Shown: positions 3,006 to 64,000, numbered from the stretch's first letter. The stretch: 64,000 bases of DNA from Reclinomonas americana ATCC 50394 (GCA_048213135.1 PS015015.1:96925-160924); one strand, 5' to 3'. Notes: a model not told the origin generated them from the letters alone. Translations and numbers: made by a program.

Positions 3006-3112
3006 ATACAGTGAAAAACAGGAGTTGTGCGAAATGGCGGGAATCAAAGGAACATTGTGCGATCGTAAAGGAGTGAGAGAGAGAGTGAGAGCGAGGCAGC
3101 CTTCTCCTCACG

Positions 3113-3351
3113 ATGTCGTCTGCAGCCAGACATTGGCGGCAACTTGCTGTGTGTCTCTTGTGTGTGGCACTGCTGGTGACTGCAGTGGCCAATCACGATG
3201 ACAATGAGGAACACGAGGGTGGTGCTCAGCAGCAGCAGCAGAAGGAGGATGCGCCCAAGGGTATCAACACATGGTGAGAGGGAGAGAGGGAGGAGAGGGT
3301 GGAAGGGGAAGAGTGAATGTGACAAACTGTGCGAGAGAACGAGAGAGAGAC

Positions 3352-3386
<35 letters not shown>

Positions 3387-21337: not shown

Positions 21338-23304
<1,967 letters not shown>

Positions 23305-28648: not shown

Positions 28649-30577
28649 TCACCGACTCATAGACGACGCCGATGAAGGCGACGACGGTGGTCGCTGGTTG
28701 GCGAGGCCGGGCGACGGTGACCGACGACCCACTGCCAACAAGAATAAGCAACAAAACAAGAAATCACAACGACAATCACCACCAACACACACCTGCGCGC
28801 ACTGGACCAGCGGGAGAAGACTGCAGCGCCAATGGCGAAGACTGCAGTGCCAACGGCGGCGGCGGCGGCGAGCTGCTTCCTCCCACTGCGCCGGCTGGCG
28901 AAGCCGACAGTGACAAACGCCCAGATGAGGAACCAGACGCACGACTGGCGGACTCGCCCGCAGCACCAGTGGAGAGTCGATCGGTCGACCGCGCAGAGCT
29001 CGAGGGAGACGAGGCGGCAGCAGCTGCCACCAAGTTTGACGGCTGTGCGGCGAAGGTACATGTGAGTGAACTCGACGAGAAGCAAGAGCACGAGTGCATC
29101 AGTCCTCACCTCGCCGGCACGCGCGGCTGCGCGGGATCGCCGCAGAGTGGCAGCGTACAACTGAACCACCGGCGCCACCTTGGCCGGATCCTTCCACAGC
29201 AGGCGAATGGCGTTGTTGCCGAGATCGGCCACGTACACCTCGGCCAGTTGCGTCACGAGAATGTCGGAGAGAGAGTTGAATTTGGCCTGCGACAAACAAC
29301 ACGGGGTGAGCACCAAGTGCGTCCCAAAGCGAGCGGCACTTGCAATACATCGCAACTTCATCGGCGGTCCCATTGACGTGACCCCAGCCCTTCTGGCCGG
29401 CAAACGTGACGACACTGGTGTAGTCGCGCGACACCTTGCGAATGCTGTTGTTCTCGCGATCCGCCACGAGGATCTCGCCACTCGGCACCACCGCCACCGC
29501 CACCGGAAAACTGAAGGCCGCCGACTCAGCGGGCCCATCGCGGAATCCCGACTTGCCCGAACCGGCCACGGTGCTCACCAGCTCCAGATCGGCCGACAGC
29601 TTGCGAATGACATGGTTGCGCGAGTCGGCCACGATGAAGCCGCCGTCCACGTCGGGTGTGATGCTTGTGGGTCTCTGTGGGTACCGCGTGAGTCAGCAAA
29701 GGAGAAAGCGAGTGTGGAATGCGTGTATGCGTGACGCACCCGGAAGAGTGAAGCCGCCGCCGGACCATTCGTGTAGCCCTCGACAGAGCCGGCAACCGTA
29801 GTCACGCGGCCCTCGGCCACCGCAATGCGCCGAACGCGATGGTTGAACTCGTCGGCCACCAGCACCGCCCCGTCTTGCGTCACACAAATATCGGAGGGCC
29901 CATCAAAGCGGGCCTCGGCCACCGACCCATCACGGAAGCCCTTCTTGCCCGAGCCAGCCAACGTGCGCGCATCGGTGCCGTCTACGTGAGAGAAGATGAG
30001 CGCGAAAAAAGAACACAAAGTTGGAGAAGAGAGAGGGCTGCGCACCGAGCTTGATCATGCGAATCCGATTGTGACCCGAGTCGCACACCAACACGTAGTC
30101 CTCGTACAAGCACATGCCCTTGGGCGCCAGCAGCACACCTCCATCCAGCAGTGTCTCCACGCGGCCCTCATCGGGAAACACTCGTCGCAACGAGTTGCTG
30201 CGCGTCTCCGACACCACCAACGATCTGCAAACACACACACACACACACACACATGTGAGCAGCGCGCAGAGGAAGACAGAGAATGTGTGTGTGCGCACCC
30301 ATCAGGCAGCTCGCAGAGGCGATTGATGCCTGAGAACTCGGCCGACGCAAAGTCCCCATCGCGCTCTCCAAAGCGACCGGAGCCGCACAGTGTGCGCACA
30401 AGGAACTCGCCTCGCCAGAAGGCATCCTTGGCGAACACAGACGCGGCCTCCGCGGAAGCTAAAGACAGAAAGATAAGAGAGAAGAGAGTGAGTGCATGAC
30501 GTGTGCGCAAGAGTGTGTGCGTGGACGCAACGAGGGCTGTTGGTGAACATGCGCTTGCCAGTAGGCGTACCAGACAT
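28649..30577 (-). CDS. NHL-repeat beta-propeller protein with a Ser/Pro-rich tail
   Basis: Repeated TLAGSGKKGFRDG..AEARFDGPSDI...VLVADEFNHRVRRI, VADSRNHVIRKL, VADRENNSIRKV, VADLGNNAIRLL. Confidence 0.88.
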
Positions 30578-42000: not shown

Positions 42001-43204
42001 GCAGTCTAATGTCGCAGGCCGTGGACTACTTCCAGTCGGCTCGGCACGATCCGTTGGTGGGACCGCAAATCATCCTAGACCTGGCAGTGGCCCTCGACAA
42101 CTCGGGTGTCGTCCTGCAGGGGCTGGGGCACTTTGAGCGCGCCATTGAGCGGCACCGGGTTTGTTGTTGTGCGCGCTTCACGGGTGCATTTTTCATTCAT
42201 TTACTCAAATGAGCATGTGTTACAGGAGGCTGCCGAGGTGCGCTCGTCACTCTACGAGGCCTCCAACATTGAGCTGTGGCCGTCGCGGACCAATCTGGCC
42301 ATTGCGTATGAGAACTGTGGACGGAATGCGGAAGGTTGGGTCCCCTTGGTGTGTGCATGTGCGTGTGCGTTTGCTCATGCGATTGCTGGGTGCAGCAATG
42401 GAGATCCACCGCGAGATGCTCGAACTGGCACGCTCATCGCCTGGCACCTTCTCGAGTCACATTGCGTCCAGTCTCACCAATTTGGCCATCTCGGTGGCGC
42501 TCGCTGGCGAACTCACGGAGGCCGAGGGTTTGCTGGTGGGTTTCCTCTTTCTGATTTGCTTTACTTGTTTGCGTGGCTGACTTTCTCTCCACGCCGCGAT
42601 GCAGCGCGAAGCCGGTGACTTGTGGCCAACGCTGCACCCGGAGCTCGGTATTGTGTGGAACAACCTCGGGCTGGTGTTGATGTACCAGGGCCGTCTGGAG
42701 GAGGCCGCGAACTACCTCAACAAATCCCTGCAGCTGCTGGAGATGCACCGCCGCGGCGACAACCCTGTGTGTCTGCTGGTGCGCAACAACATTGGTGTGC
42801 TGACCGAGTCCAGTCCGGTTCCGCAAGACGCACTGTACGTGTACGCCCACGCGGCACGCATGCGCCCCGTGCACCCCTGCTACCCGTTCGTGACCTTCAA
42901 CACGGCACGCGTGCTGTCGCTCTCTAACCGAGAGCAGGCCGCTGCGCTGTTCCGCAAGGTGTGTGTGATTGTGATTGTGAATGTGCGGGAGTGTGAGGCG
43001 CGTCTCACGCAGTGGAGCGCGCAGTGTCACGAGCAGGTGACGGTGGTGGATCCGTGGGCCGGGCAAAGCGCCGAGTTGCAGGAGTTGCGCCAGCAGCACG
43101 ACTGGCTGGCCATGGCGGACCGAGTAAGCGAGCTGTCGCCGCAAGCCGTGTTCTTGCACGCGTACGCTCGATGTGTGCACCGCAATGCGTGGAACACTTA
43201 CTGA
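36073..43204 (+). CDS. NLR-like STAND P-loop NTPase with C-terminal TPRs, low-complexity N-terminus and an unrecognised globular domain
   Basis: Walker A VTGEQGVGKTS (~38840); Walker B RIIVLDNV (~39200); GxP motif INGSPLYAQL (~39620); TPRs HPEYARALNTAANI...EAIRLIERSL and HPELGIVWNNLGLVLMYQGRLEEAANYLNKSL. One gap at 38069-38118. Confidence 0.78.
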
Positions 43205-43317: not shown

Positions 43318-44469
43318 TCACAACCCAAACAATTCCTCGTCCAGACCCTTCACCGTCGCCTGCGCCGACCGTGACGCCGGCTTATCATCCTCACGCTTGG
43401 TGGCCTTGCCCGCCGGCTTCTTCTTCTTCTTCTTGTCCTCGTCGAGATCCATCGTGCCGGCCTCGACACCCATGGCCGCCTCGAACTTATTGGCAGTCTT
43501 CATCTCCTTCTTTGCGGGATTGGCAAACATGGCATCCAGCGCATCTCGCTGCTGCCGCGTCTGGTACGTCGAAATGTCATCAGCAACATCATCAGCAGCC
43601 ACCACCACCGCGCCATCACCGTCGACAGCCGTGACCGCACTCGCACTCAGTCTCAGCGTCGACAGTTGCTCGCTCGGTGGTGCCACAGCCACCGCCGCCG
43701 CTGTTGCTGTTGTCGTCGTCGTCGTAGTTGTCGTCGTCGATGATGAGGTCGCAGTGGCGCCACCGCCAGCCCGGGAGCCACCAAACAGCGAGTCATGTGT
43801 GTCGGCAAAGAAGTCTGACGCATTACGCTGCGCCGACTGCGGCTGTGGTGGAGGCGGTGGCTGCGGTGCAGCGGTGGCACTTGTCGCCGACGACGCATCT
43901 CCCGACGCCGCCAACAGCGCCTCCGCCTCTCTCCGCTCCTGCGCACTGATGACCACACCATCCAACTCCAGCAGCGTCGGCATCCGCGCAATCACAAACG
44001 CCCGGTAGTTGCGCTCGGTCTTGGCGAACGGACAACCCTCCAGCCACAAGGACTCCACCGCCGGAAACGTAAACAACCCTGCATGCACAACCACAGTGGA
44101 TGAGTCATGGATGACGCGAACGAGGAGAAAGCAAGAGCACGAAACCTTGCAGTTGCCGCGCAAAGCGAAACGTGTTGCCACTGAGATCCAGGCGACGCAC
44201 ACGCAAGCACTTGCTGAAATCACCCAAATCTGATCATCACGCACAGTCATCACTCTTGCACACACACACATACACCACTCTCTTCACTCACCATCAATGC
44301 TGCCTTTGGTGATCGACAGCTCCTCCACCTCTGCCACATTCACCATCTGTCACACACGCACAACAAGAGAGCGTGAGTGTGTGACGCAAACACTCACAGA
44401 CAAGAGCACACATAAGCAACAAACCCGATTCAGCTTCGCCGGCAGCTTCTCCACAGTCAACTTGGGCAT
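43318..44469 (-). CDS. Short SDS22/U2A'-type LRR protein with LRRcap
   Basis: MPKLTVEKL; VRRLDLSGN; VESLWLEGCPF...NYRAFVIARMPTLLELDGVVISAQER. Confidence 0.8.
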
Positions 44470-44567: not shown

Positions 44568-47500
44568 ATGCGCTCGGCACCACGTGTGCATTCCAAAGTT
44601 TCGCCCACTCTTCTCTCATGCCCAACTCTCTCTCACACACTCACACACACGCGCGTTCACAGGATGCAGAGGCGGAATCTGCATCGCCCTCGACGCTCTC
44701 CTTTGTGCTCTTTCTCGTGTGCATTGTGTGCGTGTGTGTGGCCGTGTGGAGCTTCGAGCATCCACTGTGGTCACTGCCGACTCCGGTCTCTGGCAAGGAG
44801 TGCCCGGCGGAGAGCGCCACGTGTTTCTCAGAGGAGCGCGCTCGTCGACACACGCAGTATCTCACAGAGACCATTGGCATTCGTTGCGCATCTGCATCTC
44901 TTGCGCGCCTCTCTCTTTTCTTTGTTTTTTTTGTTGTTCATTCTTTTGTTTCCCCTGTGGCACTGCGTAGGACTGACGGGCACTGATGAGAATGAGATTG
45001 TTAGTGCGGGGTACCTGCTTAACGAATTCGAGGCGTTGCAGGTCGGTCGGGCTGTCGGTGTTTCTCCGCATTGTGTCTCTGTCTCTTATCGCTCGTGTGT
45101 GTGTGTTGGCGATGCAGGAGACTGCCAGCGAGAAGCTGACGGTGGAGGTGGAGCAGCAGTTCACCTCGGGCAATTTCTCCATGAGTTGCGCACGTTTGCA
45201 TGCAGGCTGTATGTTATAACAACAACGCATTCACTGGGTGTCCGCCAGACTTTTTGCAGCACGACTTGGCGCTGGTGTACTCGAATGTCACCAACATTCT
45301 CATGCGTGTGCGGGCGCGTAGTGATGCGGAGCCGGAGCATTGCGTCGTGGTCGGCACGCACTTTGATTCGACGATTTCCAGTCCCGGTTTGCTCACGATC
45401 CTCCTTGGTGGTGCTCGTGACCGCCACCCCCACATGCGCGCTTACTGGCATGTGTGTGATGCAGGTGGTTCCGATTGTGGCACGCCAGTGGGTATCGCGG
45501 TGGAAATGGCACGCGCGCTGACTCGTCCGGGTGCGGAGAAGTACTTTTCGCCGGGTGGCGAGAACTGCGTCGTGTTTGTGCTGAATGGCAGCGAGGAATT
45601 CGGACTGCTGGCCGCACACGGTTTCCTGAGCCATCCGTGGGCCGAGCGGTGAATGGCTTTTCCTCTCAGCTGCTTGGTTATCTTGCTCTCACAATCCTAC
45701 AGCTCCTCGTTCATCGTCAACATGGAGGCCGTCGGTGCCGGCAGCAAGGAAGGTACGTCTGTCGTCCGTCGCTTTGGCGCACTGGTGTGCCTCGCTTAAA
45801 CACGCTGCTGCACGCGCACAGTCTTCTTCCAGACCGCCCCCGGCAACCGCCACTTTGTGGAGACGTACTCTGAGTACGTGAAGCGTCCGCATGGCACAGT
45901 GCTGGTCCGTCGTCGTTGTTGTTGTTGTTGCCGTCGCTTGCAGTTTTGTGTGCCTTCTGAGTCGCTTTGCGTGCTTTCGATAGGGCGAGGATTTGTTCCA
46001 GCGGCTGCAAGTCATTCCCAGGTGCGTGTTGCAATGGGCGACGGCGTTGCGTACATGTATCATTGTTCTTAACTGCATCGTGTAGCGACACCGATTTCCG
46101 CATCTACCGCGATTTCGGCGGCATGCGTGGCTACGATTTTGCCGTGTACCGCAACAGGTGCGTGATGCTTTCATGTGGCGGCGACTTGCACTTCCATTCA
46201 CCACCACACGCGCACAGCCAAGTGTACCACACCGAAAAGGATAACATGGAGATGATCACACCCGGCACCATTCAGCACTACGGCGAGAACGTGTTTGCCG
46301 TGACCCGCGGCATCTTGGCCAACTACAAGAAGCTGGTGCAGAGGCATTGTCTCTTGTTGTTCTCTTGTCTTTCCAGGCGTTGTTGCTTACGTTGTCGCAG
46401 ACGGAGACGGACGTGGAGGATGTCGCATACTTTGATGTTCTGAGCACGTACATGATGTGGGTGCCGTCATGTTGCGTGGCTGCTTGTTTATCAGCAGAGG
46501 CTCTCTCTCTCTCTCTCTGTCGCTGACACGTCAGTCTTTCCATCAGCCGTTCTCCGCCTGATCCAAGTCTCCACATTCGTCATTACACTGCTGTTGCTGG
46601 TGATCTTCTCACGCAACAAGCGTGGTGGCAACACCATTTTCCAGGACGCGTTGGTCGACACGGTGAGTGCGTTGTTGCAGTGTACACTCATGGTGACGAT
46701 CACTGAATGTGTGTGCGTGTGTGTTTGCAGGGAGTGCTGATCCTCGCCGTGCTGTTCGCCGTCATTTTCAACGTCTGCGTGGCGCTCTTCGTGACACGTG
46801 TCATTGGAAGCCGCCTCTCGTTCTACTCGAACGGATTGCTCGGTGGTTTGCTGTACGGCAGCGGTGCACTGTTTGGCTTCTTCCTGGCCATTCGTTTCAA
46901 GGTTTGGCAGTCGGGGGTGTCGTGAAAGAAAAGAGTGTGAGCGACTGACGGCGACTCACGCAGACGGTGGTTGCGGTGCTGGCTGGACTCATTGTCGCCA
47001 TGTTGCAATATGTGCTGGTGCTGCGCGTCGCGTGGCGCATCGGCTCGCCGGAGGAAGTCGACGACATTACGTGGGTGTCGAACTTGGTGCCGTCGCCGAC
47101 AATGTTGTACGGCGCGGCAGTGGTGATGGCCTCTGTGTCGCTGATTGTCGTGCCGTGGATGGGCGTGCGTCAGTTGCGTGATATGCGATAATGATCGCAT
47201 GTGGGAGTAACGTACCAACATTCGCGTTCAGCTTCGCGCACCGTCGTCGGACAGCCAAGGAGGCACCATCGCCGTTGACTCAGCGTCTGGCATTCGGATT
47301 CAGCGTCCAGTTCCTGACACTGCTTATCATGGCGGCACTGGCCGCTGGTCCGTCACGATTTGTGTGTGCATGTGGTGATCGACTTCTGTCTCACAGTTTT
47401 CGCACAGGCGGTCTCGGTTTCACGTATCTGTTCACCATTGTGAGCATTGCTGGTGTGCTGTCCCTCGTGCTGGAGCTGCTGGGCAACGGTATCGTGCCCA

Positions 47501-49000: not shown

Positions 49001-52000
49001 ATGGACACGGACGCGCAGGTTTGTCAAACAACAGCTTCTGCGGTGGTGGCGACCTCACACTCCACTCACATTCTGCACTGTGCACAACACAGGCAGCAGC
49101 AGCAGCAGCCGTGGTGGTTGCCTTTAGTGGTCAGTTCGGATGCACCGAGGCGTCGCTGGGCAAGACGGTCGAGTCGATTGGAGGCTCCTGGTCGCGCTCT
49201 GTCACCAAGAAGGCAAGTGTGCACGTTCGTTGTCGTGCTGTGTGCATGTGTGCTCATGACTGCCCGCGCACACAGGTCACACATCTGGTGACCACTCTCG
49301 AGGACGTCGGTCGACATGCACTCGGCGAAACGGCATTCGTCAAGGTCGCCAAGGCGGTAATGGCCAAGCTGCCTCTTGGTTGCGTGCTCCTCCCTCTCCC
49401 TCTTTCCCTCTATCTGTCTGTCTCGCACTCACCGCTGCACTGTTGCCAGTGAGTCGCGAGTGGCTGACCGAGTCCGACGCGGCCGGCTCGTTCCTGCCCG
49501 TCGACAAGTTCCTCATTGAGCTCGAGGTGGCCAAGGCGGCCGTGGAGGCCGTCAGTGCCCCTCACCAGAAGAAGCGTGCGGCTGCGTCGGAGGCCGCTGA
49601 GGAGGAGGAGCTGCCGGGTGAGCCGACTGCTGGCATGCATGTGCCGCGTGTTTTTTTTCTTGACTGACAATGGTGGTTTTCTCTCTGCAGCCAAGAAGCG
49701 TGCGAAGCGTGGAGCCAAGGCCGCGGAGACGACGGCCACAGACGACAGTGAGCCGGCTGCTGCGGAGGCCCCTGCGGCGGCGGCGCGTCCGAAGAGGGGC
49801 GCCGGCAAGAAGGCTGCTGCGGCTGCGGCTGCGGCTGCTGCGACGAGCCCCACCAGCGACATGGATGTGGACGCGGGTGAGACGGAGGCAACGCCCGCCG
49901 CCAAGGCCAAGAAAGGCAAGGCAGCGGCCAAGGCCGCGACTAAGACGGAAAAGGCCGACGATGCCGCCATGGCCGGAGACGAGGAGGAAGAGGAGGCGGC
50001 GCCAGCGGCCAAGGGCAAGAAGGGCAAAAAGGGCAAGGCGGCAGCCAAGGCCACCGCCAAGACCGAGAAGGCCGACGATGACGAGGAGGAGGAGGAGGAA
50101 GAGGAGGCAGCCCCGGCAGCCAAGGGCAAGAAGGGCAAGAGCGGCAAGGCGGCTGTGGCTGCTGCTCCCGCCACTGCTGCCACTGCTCCCGCTGCTGCTG
50201 CTGCGCCGGCCTCATCCAGCCGCCCGCCGGATCCATTCACCACGGTGCCCCGCGATCAGATCATTATGGTGCCACGCGATGTGGCCAAGCCGAAGGCCAT
50301 CAAGGCCGCCAGCGCGCCGCCGTTCCCCTCCAACTACGTCATTCTCAAGCACGTCGGTGAGTCGCACGTTCCCCCCGAGTGATCTCATCGATGCACACTC
50401 ATGCTTCCATTTCCTCGCAGTGCTGCAAGGTATATGCGTATCGCAGTGCACTTGTCTGTCCCTGTTTACTGATTCGCCGCGCTGCAGTGACCGACATCAA
50501 GGACAACCACAACAAGTGTGCGTGTTGCAGCAGCGCTTGCTTTGTGTTTAATCTACTGCTCATTCTTCCCCCTCCCCAACGCAGACTACTCGATGGAGAT
50601 CCACGAGGCGCCTGGCGGCCACTACCGCATCTACAGCCACTACGGACGCACCGATGACCTGCAGTCGAACCCGGTCTGTTATCCGATGCGTGCACTTGTA
50701 TTTGTGGCTGCATCCACTGACTTGGCAGCTGCACAGAATGCTGGGCAGCGCGAAGTGCGCCTGTTCCCGAGCTTGCCTGCTGCGTGCGCCGGTTGGGAGC
50801 TCCTGTACAAGGTCTGTGCGTGTGGCCACTGATTGCATTTCCTCGAGACAACTCATTGGAGTACTATATGAGCGTAGGACAAGACCGGCGGTAGCAAGGG
50901 CTACCGTCCGTGAGTGGCATCCACCATTCCCTTTTTCTCGCGCTTCTTCATCGTCTCGCTCACTACGTCGCAGGGTGAACTTGGCGTCGTCCAAGATCGG
51001 CTCGGAGAAGGCAGTCGGTGTCAGTGTCGGCGAGGTCGGCGCAGCCACCTTGGCCAAGTCGACCAAGGCCTCTGATCCGCAGGCTGTTGCGTTGCTCTCT
51101 CTTCTCCATTTGATCTCGTGCACGCTGACACTCATCACTCGTGAGCAGGCCGTCAAGGCACCTGCCGTGTCGACACTCGACTCGCATGTGCAGGAGCTTG
51201 TGCGAGTTGCGTAATAATATCCTCCCCCCGATCGCGCCAGCCCTGCGAGCTCACTGTGCGTGGGCAGTACATTTACGCCGAGGCCACCAATGCACTCACG
51301 TCGGCCGTCAACTGCTCCATCACGGCGCACGGCATTGAGACGCCACTGGGCGTGTTGACCATGGAGCAGGTGGAGCGCGGCGAGGCCATCCTCAACCAGA
51401 TTCTCGGCGAGGTGGAGAGCAGCAAACCGAACAGCGCCGTGCTGCAGCGTCTCTCCAGCGATTTCTTCACCGCCATCCCTCACCGCATCGGTCGTTCGCG
51501 TGCCGACATCGAGGCCTCGGTGCTGACCACCAAGGACAAGGTCAAGGCCGAGGAGGAGTTGCTGCAGGTACGCACACACACATGTCTTGTAGGCCTCGCG
51601 TTTTTTCATGGCACTCAACTCCTGTGCGCAGCTGATGAAGGACATGTTGCAAGTGGACGAGGCCGGAGGTAGCGGCAGTCATGTGCTCTTCGACAATGTC
51701 GTTGACGACCAGGTTAGTGGTAAGACAAGCACGTTTGTGCATCTGTATCCTGAATATGTGGCGGTGCTGGAATGCAGTACAAGGCCCTCGGCTGCAACGT
51801 CGAGTTTGTGCCGCCGTCGTCGCCCGACTTTGCACGCATTCGCGACCACGTACTCAAATCGCGCGTAAAGTCGTGCAACCTCAAGGTGCGATCCTTTTCT
51901 CTCCTTCTCGCACTCGCGCACACACACTCACTGCATGTTGCAGGTGACCAATATTTACCGCGTGCAACGCCCCGAGGAGACCGCACGATACACGGGCGAC

Positions 52001-53057
52001 AAGATCGGCAACGAGCGCATGCTCTTCCACGGTTCCCGCATTCAGAATTGTTTCGTGGCGCTGCATGCACGCCAGCATCTCTTCACCTTTGTGACTGACC
52101 GCCGCTGGTGCATGCAGGGGTCGGCTTGTTGTCGCGTGGCCTGCTGAGTTGCGCCAGTTGCACATTAACAACTGTGTTTCCTCCTCGTCTGACTTGTTTT
52201 GTGTTTGAACAGTGCCCAAGACCGTCGTCTCCATGGGCATTCGTCGTACTGATGCTGGTGAGTGCATGCATATCTCTTCTTGTGCCAAGAACAACATTCC
52301 TCATCACTCACGGATGCCTTCCGACGCACAGGCTGGGTGAGCACACTCTCTTCTGTGACCAGTGATATGAACACGCGACTCATCGCGTACTGCAGCTCGG
52401 CAACGGTATCTACTTTGGTGACGCATCGTGCACAAGCGCGTACTACACCTCGTCGGGGTACGTTGTCGTGCGCAGTGTGCTTCCCGTGTCTGCCACAAGT
52501 GCCCATCAGTTTTCACCACAGACGCAATCGCAACACTCGCTTCATGATGGTGCTGACTGTTGGGCTCGGCAAGATGAAGGTCTGTGATGTGTGTGCACGT
52601 GAACCGACTTGATTGTCATTCTCACCGCACTGTCGCCGAACAGGAGTACACCAAAATCACGTACGGCTTGACGTGAGTGTCGTTCATCGCATGTGTACTG
52701 CTTTTCGATTTCGCTGTGCACTGATCGTGGTGCTGTAACAGGAGCCCGCCCAACGGCTACGACAGTTGCCACGGTGTTCGCCGGTGCGTGCTACTTTGCT
52801 ATCCTCCCTGCTCGAATGGTAAACCAACATTTTGTTCTTCCGCAGCACATCTGGCGTGCACAGCGAATTCTGTGAGTTGTGCCTCTCCCCTCTTCTTTTA
52901 TTCTTTGTTTCTCACTGTATGCAACAGCCGACGACGAGTACTGCATTTACGACCTGGCCCAGCAGGTTTGTTGGTGCTATTGGTTGTTTGCACATGGATG
53001 GTGTGTCACTCATTGGTCGTGCAGAAAATGGACTGGCTGGTCGAGTTTAGCATGTAA
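49001..53057 (+). CDS. Poly(ADP-ribose) polymerase: BRCT - charged linker - WGR - regulatory - catalytic domain
   Basis: Splices cleanly: BRCT (FSG...IGG...VTKK|VTHLV...EWL); WGR (DNHNKYY...HYGR...KGY); regulatory TPLGVL...FFTAIPH; catalytic LFHGS, GLLSRGL, RTDAGWLGNGIYFGD, DDEYCIY...WLVEF*. H-Y-E triad present. Confidence 0.93.
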
Positions 53058-53245: not shown

Positions 53246-56200
53246 TTACGACAGGCGAGCCGGGTTCACCGGCGGCACCACCACTGGCCGCGCTTGCCCT
53301 GCGTAGTAGTTGTTGACCGCCATTCGCTCTGCACAGGAAGAAAGCATAAGAACACAATCGCTTCCCACGCCGGCAAATGCGGAACGCAACGACGGCAGGT
53401 GTGCAGCTGCTGCTGCAAATCGGCCACTGGCGTGGGCTTCTTCCAGTTAGCAGGTGGCCGCGTGCCGTTCAGCAGCGAGTAGTACCAGCGGAGGAGGGCC
53501 ATCCGACGGGCCGTGTCGAGGCACTTGGTCCGCGTGGGTCGTGGCGCTGGGGCCGGTGCTGGCTGCGCATACTGAGGCATGTAGTATGGCGACGGCTGCG
53601 GGTAGTATCCGTACGGCATTGGCGGCGCCGGGGCTTGGTAGGTCGGTGGTGGTGGCGGCGGCGGTGCAGGTGTGTAGTACTGTGGCGTGGGGGCGTAGTA
53701 GTACGGCAGTGGCACAGACTGCGGTGCTGGAGCTGGGGCAGGAGCAGGCTGTGCGTACTGCTGGTGCGACGGCACGTTGCAATGGTACGGAGCCGCAGGC
53801 TGCGGCTGCTGCTGCGGCTGTGGTGGCGGTGCTCGGCGACGGCGAGGAGCCGGCGGAGCGTACATTGGCGGAGGGTACGAGACATCGCATCCTTGCGCTG
53901 GCGCTTGCGCTGGTGGTGGCGGAGGCAGTGCATAGCGGCGACGGCGAGGAGGCGCAGAAATGGGGTTCTCCGACACATCGCAGCCACCCATGTCACCAGC
54001 CGCCGGGGGTGGCGGTGGCGGTGGTGGGCGTGCATAGTACGGATCCGGGATCATGCGTCGGCGAGGTGGTGGCGGTGGAGCCGCAGCAGCAGCAGCAGCA
54101 TCTTGCTCCTGCGCCTCTTCGGCATCATTGACAGCGGCAGAAGCCGCAGATCGCGGTCGCGCATAGTACGGGTCGGGGACGATGCGGCGACCGCCTCGGC
54201 GCCACGCACCATAAGTCGGAGCGGGACCATCGGCAGCGGACGGAGCTGCCGCAGCGTCGTCGTCGGCATCTGCACCGTCGCGAGACAGGAGGCGGCGGCC
54301 ACGTGCACGACGCGGCATCACAGCACCCTCCTCGTCCTCTTGTGGAGCACGAGCGGCTTCGGCTGCGGGCGGCGCAGCTTGTGCGGCGGGCTCCTCATAG
54401 TCGTTCTCCTCTGCAATCAAATGTAAGTGGCGGTTCGCAGAAGTGATAACCAACTCAGCAAGTGACCTTCAACAAGAGCCGCTGCAGGTCCACGAAGGCG
54501 CGAGGTCGGCGACGCGGCAAAAGCTGCTGTCGGCACGGCCAGTTGGGCGGCGGCACCAGCAGCCACTGCACATTTACGTCAGCACGAGAGACAAGGAAGA
54601 TGGATCACAGTATGGGGAACATACCGTTGCGGCTGCGCTGCGGTGCCAGTGCGACAATGCACTTCTCCACAGTGTTGATGCGACGAGCCAGTCGTGCCTG
54701 GGCAATGTGGCACACTGCGCGTGCACGCAACGACCGGGGCGCACGAGGGCACGCGTGGGCGGCGACATTGCGCAGCTTCTTCACCACCACCAGTGCTTGA
54801 CGGCAACGGCCGCGGTCGATAGTCTCAACTGCGCACACAGATCGTCAGCAACACTGCAGCTCGTGCAACACAACAACACTCGTCGTCAATCCTCACCGTC
54901 GTCATCGTCGTCGACGTTTTGGTTGCGGCGCTTCTGACGGCGTGGTGCGCTGTCATTGTCGTTGATTTCGCTGCGGCGTCTGCGACGGCGAGGCGCGCTG
55001 TCATCGTCGTCGTTGACACTGCGGCGCTGGCGACGACGGGGTGCACTGTCATCGCCGTCCAAGTCTGCGACAAAGGGGAAACAGAGTGGGCACACCACAC
55101 ACTTTCATCACCGGCTGTTGACAGTGCTTACCATTCTTGCTGGGGCGGCGACGGCTAGCAGACCGTCGCTTGCGGCCACCTGTGAGTATAGCAATGAGTG
55201 CAAGCGCCCTCTCATTGTCACATGCAAATTCAGTGCATGTCGCGCACCACCATCGCGGCGGCGGCTTGGACGACGACCACCGTCCTCCTCGTCGTCGAGG
55301 TCGTCAGCACGACGAGTTGGCTTGCGGGGCTTGTCTTCGCTCTCCTCGTCAGCATCGTCACCTTGACGACGACGGCGGCGGCGGCGGCGATCGCCCTTCA
55401 AGTCGTCCTCATCATCTGCGCCCGCAAAAGGGAACACCACTTGAGTGCCACTGCAAGTACTCTTGCTGACCATTTTCGAATTCATACGCATACCATTGCG
55501 GGCAGCAGCACGACGACCACCTCGGCGGCGCAGGGTGGGCTGTCGGCGACGACGCAGCGGACCATCGTCGTCAGCATTGGCGTCACCGCCAGCATCTGTG
55601 CATGTGGTGAGTCACAACTCACACATTGATTTACAAAAGTGGTCATGGCTGTACGCACTCTTCCTGCGCTTGCGGCCGACAACAGCAGCATCATCGTCAT
55701 CAATGTCAATGTCATCAGCGACGCGAGAACGCCGGCTGTCACCTGCAGCATCGACACGTAAACAACGGAGGCGGTGCCACTGAAACAGAAGTCCACATCA
55801 ACCGTACCCTTGCGAGAACGCGGTGCAGCACGGTCGTCGTCCTCGTCAGTGGCTTCCGGAATGGCGCGCATCACTGTCAACATGACGATGATGGAATGAG
55901 TGCCCAAGTGCTAACAAGCACACATGGAGTGAGTGTGGTGAGGTGAACGCACTTCGTCGGAACTTGCGCGCGTCACGACGAATCACGTGCCGGAGGTACT
56001 CGCTGGTGGCTGTGCAAATGTGATACGATGAGCGCAGAACACGAAGGATCCAAAGGCAGCTCAAATAAACAAACCACCACGGATACGCTTGTCTTCACGA
56101 TCTGTTTGTGTGAAAGAGTGAGTGTGGGATTGACTGAGTGGCAACAGTGCACGGGAATGAGACTCACCAGAGCCGCGGTCGTCAGAGTCAGCGCCATCGT

Positions 56201-57225
56201 CTGCATGTGGAGAAAAGATATCAAACAAACCAGTCAGTTGTCGCTCAATACCTCGGTGAGGAATACGCTTCACTCCCATCACCATTGCGCGACGGCGGCG
56301 GCGACGACTCTCGCAAGCGACGCACTGCAGAGGCAGGAAGACATGTCAACAGGGGGATCAGCAACTACGCACGACTCAAACCACACGCGCAACTGTTCTT
56401 CTTGATGCGACTGACAATGGCGCGGCACCCTGCAAACATCATAGAGTGAGACAGTGGTGGGACGAAGTGATGGTGACACCATGATGTGAAAGAACTTTGC
56501 TTGTGGATGGGTTCCGGATCGGCCTGTGACGGGTCCACTGCACAGAGAGAAAGTAAACAACACTGCAACACACAACCATGGAAGTGGCAGTGGAGGTGAG
56601 AAAACAGTACGAAACAGCTGGCATCGAAACCGGGCAGACGGCGAACACGGTAGTCACGGAAGGTGCGACCGTCTGCCACCAGTGTCGAAAAACAGTCAGC
56701 AAACTGTCCAAGAGGCACTGCTTCTCTTCCCACACCCACCATTGTCTGCATCGTACTCGCGGTTGCTGAGTCGGGAAGCTCGCTTGCACGAGCGATTGGT
56801 CGGCGGCCGCGGAACTGCACAAATGACAACGATGACCACACAAGTACAGCAATGTATGCGAGTAAGCATTTTGGTACACACTGTCATCGGCAATAGTGCG
56901 ACGACGGCACATGCGCGGTGCGCCAGACGGCGGTGGGGGTGGCAGCGACGGCAGAGCAGCAGGACCACGACGACGGCGGCAACTCTGTGGCGGCGGCGAC
57001 GCTGGAGTCTCCCACGGCGCCGGAGCTGCATTCTTTGCTTGCGGTCGGTAACCTGTGTCCACACCCCACCATGTGAGTCGACAAAGAGACCGCAGTCGCA
57101 CAGACACCACAACACAGACCCTCCCAAGGATCACCGCTAGCAGGGCGCTTGAAGGCATCGGGCGCTGCGCACACCAGACCGCAATGAGACAACACAACAA
57201 AGACTGCGATCGCGACATGCTGCAT
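53246..57225 (-). CDS. Large secreted precursor-like protein with poly-Arg/Asp-rich repeats and a Pro/Tyr-rich C-terminal region (about 19 exons)
   Basis: Signal peptide MQHVAIAVFVVLSHCGLVCA at 57225. A continuous reading frame can be spliced through GT-AG introns to NPARLS*. No family recognised. Confidence 0.7.
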
Positions 57226-57297
57226 CCACGGCTCACCCCTCGTTGCTTTCACCACTGCGTGCGTTCAGCAGCAGCCCGTCAGTCAAACAAAGCCACA

Positions 57298-57865
57298 ATN
57301 NNNNNNNNNNNNNNNNNNNNNNNNNNNNNNNNNNNNNNNNNNNNNNNNNNNNNNNNNNNNNNNNNNNNNNNNNNNNNNNNNNNNNNNNNNNNNNNNNNNN
57401 NNNNNNNNNNNNNNNNNNNNNNNNNNNNNNNNNNNNNNNNNNNNNNNNNNNNNNNNNNNNNNNNNNNNNNNNNNNNNNNNNNNNNNNNNNNNNNNNNNNN
57501 NNNNNNNNNNNNNNNNNNNNNNNNNNNNNNNNNNNNNNNNNNNNNNNNNNNNNNNNNNNNNNNNNNNNNNNNNNNNNNNNNNNNNNNNNNNNNNNNNNNN
57601 NNNNNNNNNNNNNNNNNNNNNNNNNNNNNCCGCGCGTCGGCACTTTGAGTCGCTGCGGCAGCGCCAGGAGCGTCGTCGTGCCGAGCGTGAGGAGCGTCTA
57701 CGCAACCGCCAATATGCGGACGACGCGGAGGATGTCAGTGCTGCTCCTCCGCGCGATGACACTGATGCCCCGCGAGCTCGTGGACCCAGTGTGAACAAGC
57801 AGCTGCGCTGGCTCGGCAAGCTTCTGCGCGGCTACCCGCCGGCTGGTGGCGATGCACGACCATGA
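57298..57865 (+). CDS. Small Arg/Asp-rich hypothetical protein, mostly hidden in a gap
   Basis: 'acaat' abuts the gap (likely ATG). After the gap the frame reads ARRHFESLRQRQERRRAEREERLRNRQYADDAEDVSAAPPRDDTDAPRAR...GDARP*. Confidence 0.5.
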
Positions 57866-58012
57866 GCACCTACATCCTATTCTATCTTGTATCAACTTCC
57901 TCCCTTTGTGTTTTTTTCATTGACATGCACAATGAACGCGTGATGAGTCATCAGATATCCGCGCGCCGCGAGCACATAAATATCTCAGTCACTTTCAACA
58001 CACGACGCACAC

Positions 58013-60634
58013 ATGAGGCCACAGCTGGTGCTGTTGGCGCTGCTTGTGGCGGTGCTCCTCTGTGTGAGCGCTGCGGTTGCTGTGTCTGCGCAGCAGGAGG
58101 ACGAGGTGGAGGGAGTGGAGGAGAACTTTATGCTGGTGTCGCAAGTTTCGTCCGTCTGCGCGTCTCTCTCTCTCTCTCTGTGCACACTCTAACACACACA
58201 CATACGTAGAGCGACCATGCAAGTCAGAGTGCTGATGCGGAGGATGCCATGAATGGTGCGCGTGTGTTGTGTGTTGTCTGCTCTGCTACTCTCTTCTCAT
58301 TCCAAGCCGCCACCAGAGGCCGAGTCCGATGAGGAAGACGAGTGGCTGGACGATGGTGTGTGCACATATACACACGTACGCGCAAGTGCACCACTGTCTC
58401 CTCACTCACTGNNNNNNNNNNNNNNNNNNNNNNNNNNNNNNNNNNNNNNNNNNNNNNNNNNNNNNNNNNNNNNNNNNNNNNNNNNNNNNNNNNNNNNNNN
58501 NNNNNNNNNNNNNNNNNNNNNNNNNNNNNNNNNNNNNNNNNNNNNNNNNNNNNNNNNNNNNNNNNNNNNNNNNNNNNNNNNNNNNNNNNNNNNNNNNNNN
58601 NNNNNNNNNNNNNNNNNNNNNNNNNNNNNNNNNNNNNNNNNNNNNNNNNNNNNNNNNNNNNNNNNNNNNNNNNNNNNNNNNNNNNNNNNNNNNNNNNNNN
58701 NNNNNNNNNNNNNNNNNNNNNNNNNNNNNNNNNNNNNNNNNNNNNNNNNNNNNNNNNNNNNNNNNNNNNNNNNNNNNNNNNNNNNNNNNNNNNNNNNNNN
58801 NNNNNNNNNNNNNNNNNNNNNNNNNNNNNNNNNNNNNNNNNNNNNNNNNNNNNNNNNNNNNNNNNNNNNNNNNNNNNNNNNNNNNNNNNNNNNNNNNNNN
58901 NNNNNNNNNNNNNNNNNNNNNNNNNNNNNNNNNNNNNNNNNNNNNNNNNNNNNNNNNNNNNNNNNNNNNNNNNNNNNNNNNNNNNNNNNNNNNNNNNNNN
59001 NNNNNNNNNNNNNNNNNNNNNNNNNNNNNNNNNNNNNNNNNNNNNNNNNNNNNNNNNNNNNNNNNNNNNNNNNNNNNNNNNNNNNNNNNNNNNNNNNNNN
59101 NNNNNNNNNNNNNNNNNNNNNNNNNNNNNNNNNNNNNNNNNNNNNNNNGCCGCCGTCCGCGGAGAAGGTGGATGCGGCGAGTCGACGAGCGAATCGGGAG
59201 GCGCAGGCGATTGCAAAGCAGATTTTGCAGGTGCCGCGTCGTGCGGCGTCGTCGTTGCAGGCGACGGTCGATGCCGCGTTGCGGAATGCTGATGGTGACG
59301 CGGCGGACCGCATTCGTCGGTTGGCAAGCCGCGCGATTGGCTGCTTGCGCTCGTCGACGCGCACCAGCTGGGACGCGTGGCTCGAGCTGGCGGAGGTGGA
59401 CTCGGCTCGTCGCGGGGGCAGTAGCCGTTCCGTCCGCTCCAAGGCGCCTTCCAGCACCAGGAGCTTCAGCAACAGCAACAGTGGGAAGAGAAGCAGCAAC
59501 AGCAGCAGTAGCAAGAGGAACAGCAACAGCAGCCGTGGCGGTCGCAGCAGCAATGCCTCGAACGGCTCGGTCAACACGGTCAACAGTACGCTGCAGACGC
59601 TGAAGCAGCTGGTGGCACAAGCGGAGCGGGCCCCGAAGAACTCGGCCTTGGCACGCCTGGCCAACAAACTGCGACTGGCGGCGAGGACAGTCGGCCGCGA
59701 GGTCCGCACCTCCATGGTCGGCGTGTCGCCGTCGCGATTGCTGAATCTGGCGACCTCCAACGTCAAGGACTTGTCGCTGCAAGCCATGAACAATCCCGAC
59801 GTGACGCGCAATGTGCGACGCCAGGTCTACAACTCGCAGCAGAGCGTGCAGGCGCGCCTGACCAATTGCCGCGAGAACGTCGACGAAGTGCTGCGTGAGC
59901 TGAAACGCCTGAAGCAGGACTCCCAGCCGGAAGATGACGACGCAGCGGCGGATCCACAGCCGGCTGACGATGGCGATGACGACAACGACAATAACAACGA
60001 CGACGGCTCCGACGACGACCAGCAGCCGGCGCAGCAGCAACAAGAGCGACGACGCCGCCGCCGACGAAACAGTGCACCGATCGACGAGAGCGAGCCGGAG
60101 AAGGATCGCGAGCCAGTGGACGACAGTGGCGACGACGGCGACAGCGACGGTGGCGATTCTCCGCGTTTGCGTGGCCCGCCGTCACAGCGTCGCGGCAAGC
60201 GCAGCCGCAGCAGTGGCAGCAAGCGCAGCCGTGGCAGTGGCAGTGGCAGCATGCGCAGCCGTGGTGGCAGCAAGCGTCGCAGTGGTGGTGGCAAGCGCAG
60301 CCGCCGAAGCCGTGGACGCTCCTCGGCCTCCAGGAGCCGCCGCGGGCAGGTCAACCGACCCAGCGACCGCCTGTTGGGCACGCTGTGGCGTCTCCGCAAG
60401 AAGGTGGCGTACGCCGGTCGCAAACTCGAACGCTGCGCGCAGCGCAATTGGGCCTATCGCGGCACTCGCGGTGCCGGTGGCGATCGGAGAGGCCGTGGTG
60501 ACGGACAGCCTCGCTTTCCTCGCGCTGCGTCGTGGTTCGGCGCACCGCGGTACGATGGTCACCGCGAGGTGGAGTGGGAGCCGGGTCACCGTTGCGTCGC
60601 ACCAACACCGAGCAGAGAGGGAGAGCGAGAGTGA
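58013..60634 (+). CDS. Large secreted protein with acidic, Ser/Arg/Gly-rich and Cys-bearing helical blocks; gap inside
   Basis: Signal peptide MRPQLVLLALLVAVLLCVSAAVAVSA then acidic QQEDEVEGVEE; ~1.5 kb open frame after the gap. Joining across the gap is assumed. Confidence 0.65.
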
Positions 60635-60870
60635 CAGAGACAACTCACCTATTTGACATGCTTTGCAGCAACGGGTCGTCGACCACTCGGCACCCGCGCA
60701 CACCACGACACAGCACACAAGGGCAAGCGGTCGCCACTGCTCCGGCGACGACAGCAACAACGACGCCGCAAGTGATGCCCGTCGGAGCTCCGTCGGCGTC
60801 CTCTCGTCCGTCGTGTCTGTGTGTGTTCGTTGAGTGTTGACAGCGGGAGAGAGAGTGAATCGACAAGGGA

Positions 60871-62855
60871 ATGGTCACACTTCCGCGCATCGCACTGCTG
60901 GCTCTGCTGCTGCTGGCCATTGCTCTCCTCGTCGCGCATCACAGTGCACACGCTCACTCCGATCACGACGACGACGACGACGACGATGCAGGCAACGCGC
61001 ATCACGAGCATGCTCACAGCGACAATGATGACGATGACGACGACGATGAAGAGGAAGACACACGAGATGCAGCCGAGGTGCACACACAGAGATAGCGTGA
61101 GGAGAGAACATGTCAGACAACTCACGCACACACACGCACACACAGAATGGTCTGACGACTGGCATTGTACACGTGTTGAATGGCGACTCGTTCCACGAGG
61201 TGACGCGTGTCGGGCAGTGGCTGATTGAGTTCTATGCACCGTGGTGTGGCCACTGTCAGCGACTGCAGCCGGTGTTTGAGGAGAGTGCGCGTGCGGCCCC
61301 GGATGTGTTCTTTGGCAAGGTCGATTGTGATGAGCACAGGAGTTGCGCGCGCGCGCGCGTGTGTGTGTGTGTAAGTGTGTGCGTGTGTGTGTAGGCCACT
61401 CATGCGTTGCTGTGCAGCTGTGTGCGAGGAGTTTGATGTGTCGGGATACCCGACAATCAAGTTGTTGCGTCTCTCTTTCACTGTGTGTGCCTGAGAGGAT
61501 TGCTCATTCCCTGTGTGCATGCAGCAAGCGCGGTGAGGTCGTGTTGCCGTACAAGGGTGCACGCACGCGTGACGGCTTCGTGCACTGGTTGAAGCGTGTC
61601 AATGGGTAAGTGTGCGCTCTTGTCCTTTTCTTCTGTCTGCATGTGCTTACTCGCCTGTGCGTGTGCAGTCCGGTGCTGCGTGAGGTGTCGGCCGATAGCG
61701 TGGAGGCGTTTGCCACGGAGGATGCGCGCAGTGTGTCGTTTTTGCTCATTAACCCGTCGGCGGAGGCTCGAGTTGCGCCCTGCCTGCTGCTGTTGTCGTT
61801 GTCTTTGCATGCGGGTGGAGAATTGACTGGTCTCGGCTGCGCAGCGCAATGTGGAGTCTGTGGCGCAGACGTTGCTGTTCGAGAACAAGTTTGGCGTGGT
61901 GAGCGAGGAGGACAGCAAGGCGGTGCTGCAGGAGCTGCGCTTCAAGCTGCCGAAGAAGAACAAGAGCGGATTGTTGTCGATTACGATTGGTGAGGGCGTC
62001 GACTTGTTGGTGGAGAGCGTGCTGGAGAATGCCGAGGCAGTGCGCGACTGGGTGCACTCTCGTCGCCTGCCGCCGGTGGCCGAGCTCAACGAGGGCACGT
62101 ACGAAGCGATTTCGGAGGACACTCGCAACACGTACCTGTTGATTGCGTCGTCGCAGTTGCCGGGGTCCATGGAGAGGTTCTTTTTTGCGCATAGCTCGTG
62201 CATCTGTTGACGTGGATTCTTACCTTCTCCTTGTTGCGCCAGTGCACGCAACCTGCTGACGGGGCCTGCGCGAGCTGATCGCAGTCGCCTGTTTGCGGTG
62301 ATTGACTTTTCCAAGTACGAGCGCTTCATCGAGAGCACGCTGAGCACGTCGGCCACCGAGCTGCCCGTCATCATGCGCATCGATTTCAAGGAGAGCACCT
62401 TCCAGAAGATGTCGGCCGCCTCGCGTGGCGACAATAACCTCATCTCGGAGGAGCAGCTGCACGAGTTCATTCGCCAAGCCGAGGCCGGCGACATTTCGTC
62501 TTGTTGCGTGCGACTTTTGTTGGGTGTGGACGCGATCGATTCTTGTCTTCTCTCACGTCTTGCTTGTTACACCAGCGTCGTTCGGTGGTGGCGTGTTCTC
62601 TGGGCTGTGGAATGCGGGCAAGAAGTTCTTGGTGCGTCACGATTCTCTTGTACCCCTCCCTCACCTGCATTTTGTTCACGCTTGTGTGTGTGTGCGCGCG
62701 CGCAGATCTACATTGGCCAGAACCCGTCCGTCGGTGTCAGCATTGTGCTGGCCTACATTGCCGTCATGGGTCTCCTGGTGTACGTCTTCCGCCGCATGAG
62801 CTCGGGCGACGACAAGGACGACAAGCCGGCCGTCAAGGACAAGGACAGCGACGGT

Positions 62856-62887
<32 letters not shown>

Positions 62888-63011
62888 GGCCGACGGCAAG
62901 AAGGGAGACGACAAGCGGAAACCGAAGAAGGCCAGTGCGGCGGCGGAGGGTAGCGCAGCGGTGCCGGCAGCCACGGTGCGTGCCAAGCAGGGCGAGGCCA
63001 AGCAAGACTAG
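60871..63011 (+). CDS. Transmembrane protein disulfide isomerase (TMX3-like) with a His/Asp-rich N-terminal extension
   Basis: Signal peptide; [61 protein letters not shown]; acidic tail. Confidence 0.88.
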
Positions 63012-63100: not shown

Positions 63101-64000
63101 TCAGCAACCGAACTGGATGGTGACGTTGCTGTTGATGGCGATGTTGCTCAGAGAGATGTCGAGTGTCTTGAGCGTGGAATCGAACTTGAAGGCCGTTTGC
63201 ACATTGTTCACCTGCACCGTGCACACATTCGGCACGCCAAACACCTGCACCTCGCCCAGTTGCATCTGTGCCGCCGGCTTGTACCTGATGGGGACAGACA
63301 ATTGACAGAGTTAGTCTCTAGTGAAAAGAATGTGAGGCGGAAGAGAGGAATGGAACGCACTGATCAAACACGGCGCGCGACGAGAGCTGCCACTTGGTGC
63401 TGGAGACCGATTGCACCGCCATCTGCACCAACGTGTACGTGCTCGTCGAGAGGCTGTCGAGAGAGTCGCCGTCGTCAATGTACAGCTCGCCCTGCGCGGC
63501 GCCGTTCTGATCGAGGCCGACCAGGAACTGGAACGGGTTGCGACGGGTGGCGGCAGTGGTCAGTGCGGGCGCCTGAGCCGGCACAATAGTGCCACCGCGC
63601 ATAAAGACAGGGATGACCGTCAGTGGTGCGGAGATCGTCTGGTACGAGCCAGCACCCGACACCTCGCCGCCGGTCCAGTAGTTGTACCAGCGAGTGTTGG
63701 CCGGAAGATATGCCGACACCGAGGTCGCGCCCTGCGTGAGCACAGGCACCACCATCAGAGCCGAACCTGCGTGTTGGGGGAAGGGCAGTGAGTGTGTGTG
63801 TCTGCGCAGAGAGCGTGGAAAAGTGGTTGGTCGCGGGGTAGGCACTCACCGACCATGAACTGACGATCGATGTAAGGCAGCGACGACTCGCTGTCGTTGG
63901 GGAACTCCCAGAACAGAGCACGCCACACGGTGGAGCCCTGCGACGACGCGCGGAAGAAGAGCGTGTAGTAGTACGGCAGAATGCGGTAGCGGTTGAGGAG
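63101..64000 (-). CDS. GH31 alpha-glucosidase, C-terminal part
   Basis: RYRILPYYYTLF; VWRALFWEFP; DRQFMV|GSALMVVPVL; RWYNYWTG; IPVFMRGG; AQGELYIDDGDS. Confidence 0.92.

Follow-up and report, generated by a model that had tools for sequence, protein, structure and literature searches.

A 64,000-nucleotide stretch of Reclinomonas americana ATCC 50394 (GCA_048213135.1 PS015015.1:96925-160924; hereafter the window, at its full length) consists of nuclear DNA of an intron-dense eukaryote with a G+C content of about 58%. At positions 53,246 to 63,011 it contains three adjacent orphan genes, called genes 1, 2 and 3 here, followed by a gene of the protein disulfide isomerase (PDI) family. We tentatively propose, at somewhat less than an even chance, that genes 1 and 3 are real, lineage-specific genes, that this probably holds for the partly hidden gene 2 too, and that their products are largely disordered block polyampholytes of the secretory pathway, i.e., matrix or precursor proteins. 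The exon architecture of gene 1 is the most solid new point.

Exon architecture of gene 1

Gene models were obtained ab initio with our own splice-aware dynamic-programming modeller, which scores donors in two classes (GTGCGT-like and GTTGCGT-like). The PDI gene, whose identity was checked by homology, was modelled identically as a control. The original prediction had placed gene 1 on the minus strand between an ATG at 57225 and a stop at 53246, and a multi-exon model with these ends was recovered. The gene and its main parts are:

53246..57225, minus strand: gene 1, ATG 57225 to stop 53246, 20 exons encoding about 900 residues (stricter model: 19 exons)
57120..57225, minus strand: exon 1, signal-peptide-like, with a hydrophobic core and V-C-A followed by A-P; its donor may be 57102
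54897..55873, minus strand: six consecutive mini-exons of 66, 84, 102, 168, 48 and 168 nt, from exon translations
54905..55058, minus strand: three tandem 48-nt (16-residue) repeats with the unit D-D-S-A-P-R-R-R; repeat family D3, copies 74-76% identical to the reference
54625..54828, minus strand: predicted helix-loop-helix exon of 67 residues with four Cys (AlphaFold2, single sequence)
53391..54410, minus strand: large exon with an Ala/Asp-rich start, a Pro/Ala/Tyr/Gln region and a two-Cys C-terminal segment

In the stricter model of 19 exons, 17 of the 18 introns are in phase 1. A hybrid model replaces one doubtful exon pair (14 and 157 nt) by three exons of 36, 42 and 33 nt with a consensus GTTGCGC donor; all 19 of its introns are in phase 1, end in CAG and measure 44-82 nt, and consequently all 18 internal exons are multiples of three. 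As the hybrid model was picked partly for keeping the phase, 17 of 18 is the safer count. The share of phase-1 introns in either model is far from the expectation of about one-third. This bias is absent from the PDI gene, for which the same procedure yielded nine exons and eight introns of 45-76 nt, all ending in CAG, in the mixed phases 0, 1, 2, 2, 0, 2, 1 and 0. In intron lengths and donor types the two genes agree. GTTGCG donors begin four of the eight PDI introns (61342, 61464, 61772 and 62503) and two of the 19 gene 1 introns (56393 and 53390, minus strand), and at all six of these introns the preceding exon never ends in G.

The junctions from 56009 to 53246 were identical at the three stricter penalty settings of the modeller, except for the intron 55493-55416, which remained unspliced at the two strictest; the loosest setting altered several junctions within this interval. 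Two contigs of DNA reads, one at 53872-54285 and one at 54635-54974, cover parts of the gene. The second crosses the predicted intron 54829-54896 unspliced and has adapter-like loose ends; both were read as genomic DNA and set aside as evidence for splicing or expression.

A gene of this build could have grown as small, symmetric phase-1 exons were duplicated again and again, each contributing one acid-then-base module. The 3′ ends of two gene 1 introns (54829-54858 and 56538-56567, minus strand; family D9) are 76% identical over 34 nt, a likeness which could stem from duplication of an exon-plus-intron unit or merely from common splice signals.

An alternative is that the gene models are partly or wholly chance frames in GC-rich, low-complexity DNA, or decaying pseudogenes, compounded by assembly breaks in repeats. 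Several frames are open in such DNA of the locus, with up to four or five of them overlapping at 53269-54468, and the codon bias in the genome is weak. Further, no database relative was found, the ESM Atlas values (1241 and 1196) are low, and two runs of unreadable bases (N) fall inside the genes. However, a chain of 19 short, CAG-ending introns of one phase, leading from a signal-peptide ATG to a stop, is very unlikely to arise by chance, the lengths and donor types of these introns are those of the homology-checked PDI gene, and a confidently predicted helical hairpin coincides with exactly one exon. We consider an artefact improbable.

Predicted products and their charge patterns

The gene 1 product is composed of 16% Arg, 15% Ala, 14-15% Pro and 9% Asp, and carries a net charge of about +56. 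Its signal-peptide-like start is followed by a Pro/Arg-rich part with single Cys residues beside Arg runs. Five of the six mini-exons go from an acidic, Asp-rich stretch to an Arg cluster, the one at 55132-55179 being purely basic. The helix-loop-helix exon, modelled alone with AlphaFold2, reached a mean predicted local distance difference test score (pLDDT) of 85.1, with helices at residues 5-28 and 33-60; the boundaries of the predicted hairpin are exactly those of the exon. Its Cys residues at 8, 26, 39 and 56 are symmetric about the loop (8 + 56 = 64, 26 + 39 = 65). Because they are in register across the hairpin, the model suggests that two disulfides could staple it, with the pairing 8-56 and 26-39 read from the position sums. 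A Foldseek search with this model gave no match at E ≤ 0.001, and generic helical hairpins only. C-terminal of the hairpin lies an Ala-rich linker, and the large exon beyond it contains an internal repeat (D8) with a spacing of 129 nt. The tail region of 218 residues (Pro 32.6%, Ala 18.3%, Tyr 9.6%, Gln 8.3%) is broken by RRR(R) clusters and by three Cys sites of the form G/H-C-D/N-V (G-C-D-V-S type).

Acid-then-base modules repeated at least six times, including the three 16-residue tandem repeats, could also be expected of multi-copy precursors whose mature products are Arg-rich cationic peptides with antimicrobial-like or polyanion-binding action, and whose acidic spacers would keep them inert until cleavage. 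The signal peptide, the net positive charge and the disulfide-capable predicted hairpin fit such a precursor; multi-peptide antimicrobial precursors of animals and plants would be comparable, and the gene 1 hairpin may be likened to plant hairpin peptides. On the other hand, the modules vary in length and sequence, and no defined mature peptide is repeated; Pfam revealed no antimicrobial-family homology at E ≤ 1, and large Pro/Tyr-rich and helical parts would be left unexplained. Precursors of cationic peptides are therefore, in our view, very improbable.

Genes 2 and 3 lie on the opposite strand and are each interrupted by a run of N:

57632..57865, plus strand: visible 3′ part of gene 2, 77 codons plus stop
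57300..57629, no strand: N run of 330 bases, covering the gene 2 start and a portion of the divergent spacer between genes 1 and 2
58013-58144, 58210-58255 and 58317-58355, plus strand: 5′ exons of gene 3, encoding the signal peptide and then an Asp/Glu-rich stretch
58412..59148, no strand: N run of 737 bases inside gene 3
59150..60634, plus strand: large 3′ exon of gene 3, 494 codons open to the stop at 60634

The window has nine N runs, of which these two fall within the locus of genes 1-3; their varying sizes and their position in repetitive coding DNA suggest that both may be assembly gaps.

The span first given for gene 2 (57298-57865) did not hold, as it starts two bases before the N run and its length is not a multiple of three. 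The visible part runs from an Arg/Glu-rich stretch through D-D-T-D-A-P-R-A-R to a C-terminal helix that is amphipathic, its hydrophobic moment of 0.65 being reached by 17 of 2000 shuffles. In gene 3, the 5′ exons form a chain in frame (donors GTTTCGT and GTGCGCG, acceptors TAG and CAG), and the intron that follows enters the N run. The large exon first encodes helices, a Ser/Asn-rich linker in which five N-x-S/T sequons are clustered, and more helices. AlphaFold2, given residues 1-260 as a single sequence, predicted long helices and a disordered linker with a mean pLDDT of 58, rising to 88 in the second helix. Then follow an Asp/Asn block, Arg7, an acidic stretch with D-G-G-D-S-P-R-L-R, an Arg/Ser/Gly/Lys block of about 55 residues, which holds most of the 28 RS/SR dipeptides among the 494 residues, and an amphipathic Cys helix. 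The 3′ end is uncertain, as a GTTGCGT donor at 60591 permits three alternative last exons.

Signal peptides had been predicted on the two large genes, and both starts, 57225 (gene 1) and 58013 (gene 3), pass our filter, as does the PDI start at 60871. The filter is crude (a hydrophobic core plus small-x-small) and was passed by 26 of the 999 window ATGs with at least 35 open codons (2.6%). With a mean hydropathy of 3.57, the start of gene 3 is the highest among the signal-peptide-like starts listed for 52-64 kb. Further ATGs of this type, 58253 on the plus strand and 56887, 56869 and 57218 on the minus strand, lie in pyrimidine-rich predicted introns or alternative frames, and could be alternative starts or chance. 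A plastid-type bipartite leader on gene 3 was considered and dropped, the stretch behind its signal peptide being strongly acidic.

An alternation of Arg clusters with Asp-rich spacers, originally seen in all three genes, stands for genes 1 and 3, whose charge segregation (z = 14.1 and z = 5.6) is reached by none of 1000 shuffles; it fails for the visible part of gene 2 (z = 0.5, reached by 293 of 1000). Gene 1 has 22 sites of the form [RK]x[RK]R, while its shuffles average 5.0 and never exceed 12; gene 3 has eight, its shuffles averaging 3.4 and reaching at most 11. The motif type said to be common to all three genes was confirmed in part: in its strict form, [DE][DE]-x(0-3)-[SA]-P-R-x-[RK], it has four matches in the six frames of the 64 kb, three in gene 1 and one in gene 2 (counts reached by 0 and 18 of 5000 shuffles, respectively), for a motif that was defined post hoc and of whose three gene 1 copies two come from one tandem repeat. 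Gene 3 has no strict match and shows a looser form only.

The window was scanned for segments of 50 residues with at least 11 basic and at least 11 acidic residues, which gave 13 regions, and those of Arg/Asp type are confined to genes 1-3. Regions of Lys/Glu type were found upstream of the domains of a PARP gene (49933-50172), in the PDI tail and at 43324-43473; the remainder are an Arg/Glu helix at 5485-5649 and Arg/Glu-rich or mixed frames, two of which are plain Arg-Glu repeats that probably reflect simple DNA repeats. Three such genes side by side are unlikely to have come together by chance, given that the rest of the 64 kb is free of Arg/Asp-type segments.

Highly charged proteins are also at home in the nucleus or nucleolus, and genes 1-3 might encode RS-like, acidic/basic chaperone-like or RNA-binding proteins there, with the hydrophobic starts mis-assigned or unused. 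The poly-Arg runs look like nuclear localisation signals, the Arg/Ser/Gly block of gene 3 resembles nuclear RS domains, and gene 2, as far as visible, is Arg/Glu-rich and shows no signal peptide. Other genes of the window often contain charged low-complexity regions too (49933-50172, PDI tail), and the direct neighbour is the PARP gene; PARP products are usually nuclear. Nevertheless, both readable starts are of a type seen in few ATGs, that of gene 3 being a textbook case behind which the Arg/Ser/Gly block would lie if the model across the N run holds, and lumenal or extracellular proteins would better account for the Cys hairpin, the Pro/Tyr-rich tail and the clustering of sequons. A match to a nuclear SR-like family, named in the original prediction as evidence to the contrary, was not found, as the seven pieces of genes 1-3 searched against Pfam contained no RRM, nuclear or other domain at E ≤ 1. 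Thus, we regard a nuclear role as unlikely, although it deserves attention.

Several observations weigh against secretory block polyampholytes. Besides the open frames, the weak codon bias and the nuclear features already described, genes 1-3 are known here from ab initio models only. The least certain part of gene 1 is its 5′ third (57225 to about 56000), the gene 2 start is hidden in unreadable bases, and the link across the 737 N between the signal-peptide exons and the large exon of gene 3 is model-based. The ATGs 56887, 57218 and 58253 rival the chosen starts. The Arg clusters, with six to eight residues, exceed by far what a cleavage site needs, and no gene for a kexin/furin-type protease was seen among the recognisable genes of the window. 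Moreover, the three genes show no significant similarity to each other: blastp gave best E-values of 0.20, 1.0 and 4.3, and the Smith-Waterman scores were reached by 58, 249, 376 and 203 of 2000 shuffles. The best local alignment joins the C-termini of genes 1 and 2 (L-R-W-x3-L-L-x-G...P-P-A). Finally, Cys-bearing amphipathic helices had been expected in both large genes; the helices of gene 3 are amphipathic (moments reached by 19-63 of 2000 shuffles), whereas those of the gene 1 hairpin are so no more than shuffles (594 and 711 of 2000).

Search for relatives and known systems

Databases were searched for relatives of genes 1-3. The comparison of the seven pieces with Pfam yielded no signal above noise. 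Among 5.8 billion proteins, a word-index search returned nothing at E ≤ 0.001 or 0.01 for the large exon of gene 3 and, among the longer proteins, for the hairpin exon of gene 1. The control, an exon of the PDI b region likewise searched among the longer proteins, found nothing in this collection either, not even itself; therefore, the lineage is evidently absent from it, and orphan status weighs little for fast-evolving, low-complexity genes. HMMER, used with residues 1-260 of the gene 3 exon against 1.84 billion representatives, gave a single hit (E = 2e-5, 34% identity) to nine stretches of a 1482-residue repeat protein, whose repeats we take to be HEAT-like. It was read as a repeat-amplified match of one helix pair and rejected as evidence of a family. 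In the ESM Atlas no usable match was obtained for the large exons of genes 1 and 3, with recognition values of 1241 and 1196 compared to 2300, a value attained by 91 of 100 known-family proteins. Matches of the orphan genes to PDB sequences (KCMF1 at 0.00096 and DnaJ 2 at 0.0004) concerned low complexity only and were discarded, and no relatives turned up in metagenomes scanned with the helices of gene 3 and the C-terminus of gene 1. By sequence, genes 1-3 thus appear to match no known family, as had been stated at the outset, and none of the databases searched holds a convincing relative.

Precursors of similar design are known from other protists. The silaffin precursor Sil1p combines a signal peptide with an acidic N-terminal domain and with basic repeats, which are excised, and the repetitive silacidin precursors release Asp/Glu-rich peptides (PMC4557024). 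Genes 1 and 3 share with both a signal peptide, an acidic N-terminal stretch (gene 3), repeated, strongly charged units, basic sites at unit ends as possible points of cleavage, and a combination of acidic and basic functions that would serve self-assembly (PMC4557024). Unlike silaffins, they use Arg (16-17%) and not Lys (2.7% in gene 1, 3.8% in gene 3), with two and one KxxK, respectively. The processing motif RR[IN]L has no match in genes 1 and 3, and RxL, with five matches each, is not placed at repeat ends. Silaffins lack the Pro/Tyr tail and the Cys hairpin of gene 1, and no sequence similarity to genes 1-3 was found.

The cargo of ciliate granules (Paramecium trichocyst matrix, Tetrahymena Grl) is reported to be made as secretory precursors that are proteolysed to small acidic polypeptides and assemble the granule core (PMC2119969, PMC4142616), the processing in Tetrahymena being attributed to a cathepsin and not to basic-site cleavage (PMC4142616). 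The likeness to genes 1-3 lies in the secretory precursor scheme; sequence similarity was not found in any search. Ciliate granule proteins are of acidic coiled-coil types and not Arg/Asp block polyampholytes. GAM56 and GAM82 of Eimeria are tyrosine-rich secretory precursors of the oocyst wall, processed to peptides which are thought to be cross-linked into the wall through dityrosine (PMC2726925). Compared to these, the Tyr content of the gene 1 tail (9.6%) is moderate, no homology was detected, and the Arg/Asp block region has no counterpart. Neither were the Ser-Pro(3-5) repeats of extensin-like wall proteins found: gene 1 has two SPPP, and its Pro runs mostly follow Ala, Arg or Pro. It does have Tyr pairs and a triplet. 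None of the defining sequence features of the silaffin, ciliate granule or Eimeria wall families is present in genes 1-3.

The arrangement of exons in gene 1 has a parallel in the class 1-1 modules, bounded by phase-1 introns, that were shuffled among animal extracellular proteins: a signal-peptide exon is followed by modules with phase-1 introns on either side. In gene 1, however, the modules are low-complexity charge blocks of 9-68 residues and not folded domains, and they appear to have been multiplied within one protist gene, whereas the animal ones were shuffled between genes. In other eukaryotes, phase-1 introns are reported to be over-represented near signal-peptide cleavage sites (PMC1626468).

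Gene neighbourhood and possible role

Genes 1-3 are flanked by recognisable genes on both sides:

60871..63011, plus strand: PDI-family gene, 9 exons
51145-51669 (PARP_reg) and 51869-52144 (PARP catalytic match), plus strand: PARP gene, adjoining gene 1 on the side away from the PDI gene
63321-64000, minus strand: C-terminal part of a GH31 glycosidase (Pfam Glyco_hydro_31_3rd, E = 3.2e-17), converging on the PDI gene

A disulfide isomerase about 240 bp beyond gene 3 had been predicted, and a gene with a thioredoxin domain indeed begins 236 bases after the stop at 60634. Its product contains, in this order, a signal peptide, a His/Asp-rich insert, a CGHC-bearing thioredoxin domain (Pfam Thioredoxin, E = 1.8e-15; 57.3 bits, cut-off 23.5), a putative b region of thioredoxin-like type, a transmembrane segment and an Asp/Glu/Lys tail. 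The match of the b region, for which one exon was the query, is weak (Thioredoxin_6, E = 0.001, 19.4 bits, below the curated cut-off of 27 bits). In PDB, 220 sequences matched at E ≤ 0.001, the best being TXNDC5 at 1e-30. The protein had been described as His/Asp-tailed, which proved to be misplaced: the His/Asp/Glu-rich stretch of about 45 residues (60940-61077, in the exon 60871-61077) lies directly behind the signal peptide, and the C-terminal tail behind the transmembrane segment is rich in Asp, Glu and Lys. The insert looks like a metal- or calcium-binding low-complexity stretch. The arrangement of transmembrane segment and charged tail is presumably that of the membrane-anchored, TMX-type PDIs, with which the protein has in common the signal peptide, one CGHC domain, a putative b region, one membrane span and a charged tail on the cytosolic side; it differs from them in its His/Asp-rich insert and in its C-terminus, A-K-Q-D, which is not a canonical di-lysine signal.

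Genes 1-3 and the PDI gene might form a co-regulated cassette for one secretory structure, such as an extrusome, scale, cyst wall or adhesive, with the PDI dedicated to the Cys-bearing precursors. The compositional type of the three adjacent genes is unique within the window, genes 1 and 2 are divergent with at most about 400 bases between them, and gene 3 is followed at 236 bases by the PDI gene and then by part of the GH31 gene. However, every spacer measured in the region is short, whatever the function of the genes, including the 147 bases from the gene 2 stop to the gene 3 ATG and the roughly 300 bases from the PDI stop at 63011 to the low end of the GH31 frame at 63321; the short distances therefore do not speak for a cassette. 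The sole 9-mer common to the upstream regions of gene 3 and the PDI gene is not enriched in the window (20 matches against 25.2 expected). The thioredoxin domain of the PDI, with its CGHC, is generic and has many PDB relatives, the PDI itself shows no tie to genes 1-3, and the Cys content of the putative substrates is low (15 of 899 residues in gene 1, four of 494 in the large exon of gene 3). A dedicated cassette is decidedly unlikely; most simply explained, the PDI is an ordinary membrane-anchored member of its family, adjacent as a consequence of the compact genome.

Elsewhere in the window, an M28 peptidase (45185-46440, plus strand), an NHL-repeat protein (29102-30054, minus strand) and a TPR protein (42581-43201, plus strand) are recognisable. 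A long, Lys/Ala/Glu-rich low-complexity frame (49468-50379, plus strand) lies directly upstream of the PARP domains on the same strand and may be an N-terminal extension of the PARP gene. CA/TG and CT/GA dinucleotide microsatellites are abundant (1-100, 3047-3664, 22269-22598 and many introns) and give rise to long spurious open frames, e.g., of Arg-Glu or Thr-His repeats.

If genes 1-3 do encode secretory block polyampholytes, their products would enter the endoplasmic reticulum (ER) via the N-terminal signal peptide, and blocks of opposite charge would drive dense self-association within the secretory pathway, akin to coacervate-like packing. ER oxidoreductases would oxidise the Cys hairpins, and a kexin/furin-type protease may cut at the Arg clusters, releasing acidic peptides and Arg-rich pieces that could form the matrix of a wall, scale, granule or adhesive. 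By analogy with silaffins and silacidins, ciliate granule cargo and the Eimeria oocyst wall, the proteins may thus be condensed and cut into matrix components. The more specific proposal, a new class of ER-targeted block polyampholytes which arise from duplicated phase-1 mini-exons, are charge-paired and cut at poly-Arg, and build a lineage-specific extracellular or extrusive structure, is in our opinion a long shot; on that view, skipping of the symmetric exons might adjust the charge pattern combinatorially.

As it stands, the locus offers a pair of orphan low-complexity genes with two sequence gaps at critical places. Nevertheless, a run of about 18 consecutive symmetric phase-1 mini-exons in gene 1, each of them a charge module, is interesting in itself, and gene 1 would be a clear protist case of a secretory protein enlarged by exon duplication, which has mostly been discussed in animals. 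If the products are secreted and processed, they would be an Arg/Asp counterpart of the Lys/phospho-Ser systems by which diatoms build silica, and would provide a genetic handle on a secretory structure in a poorly sampled protist lineage.

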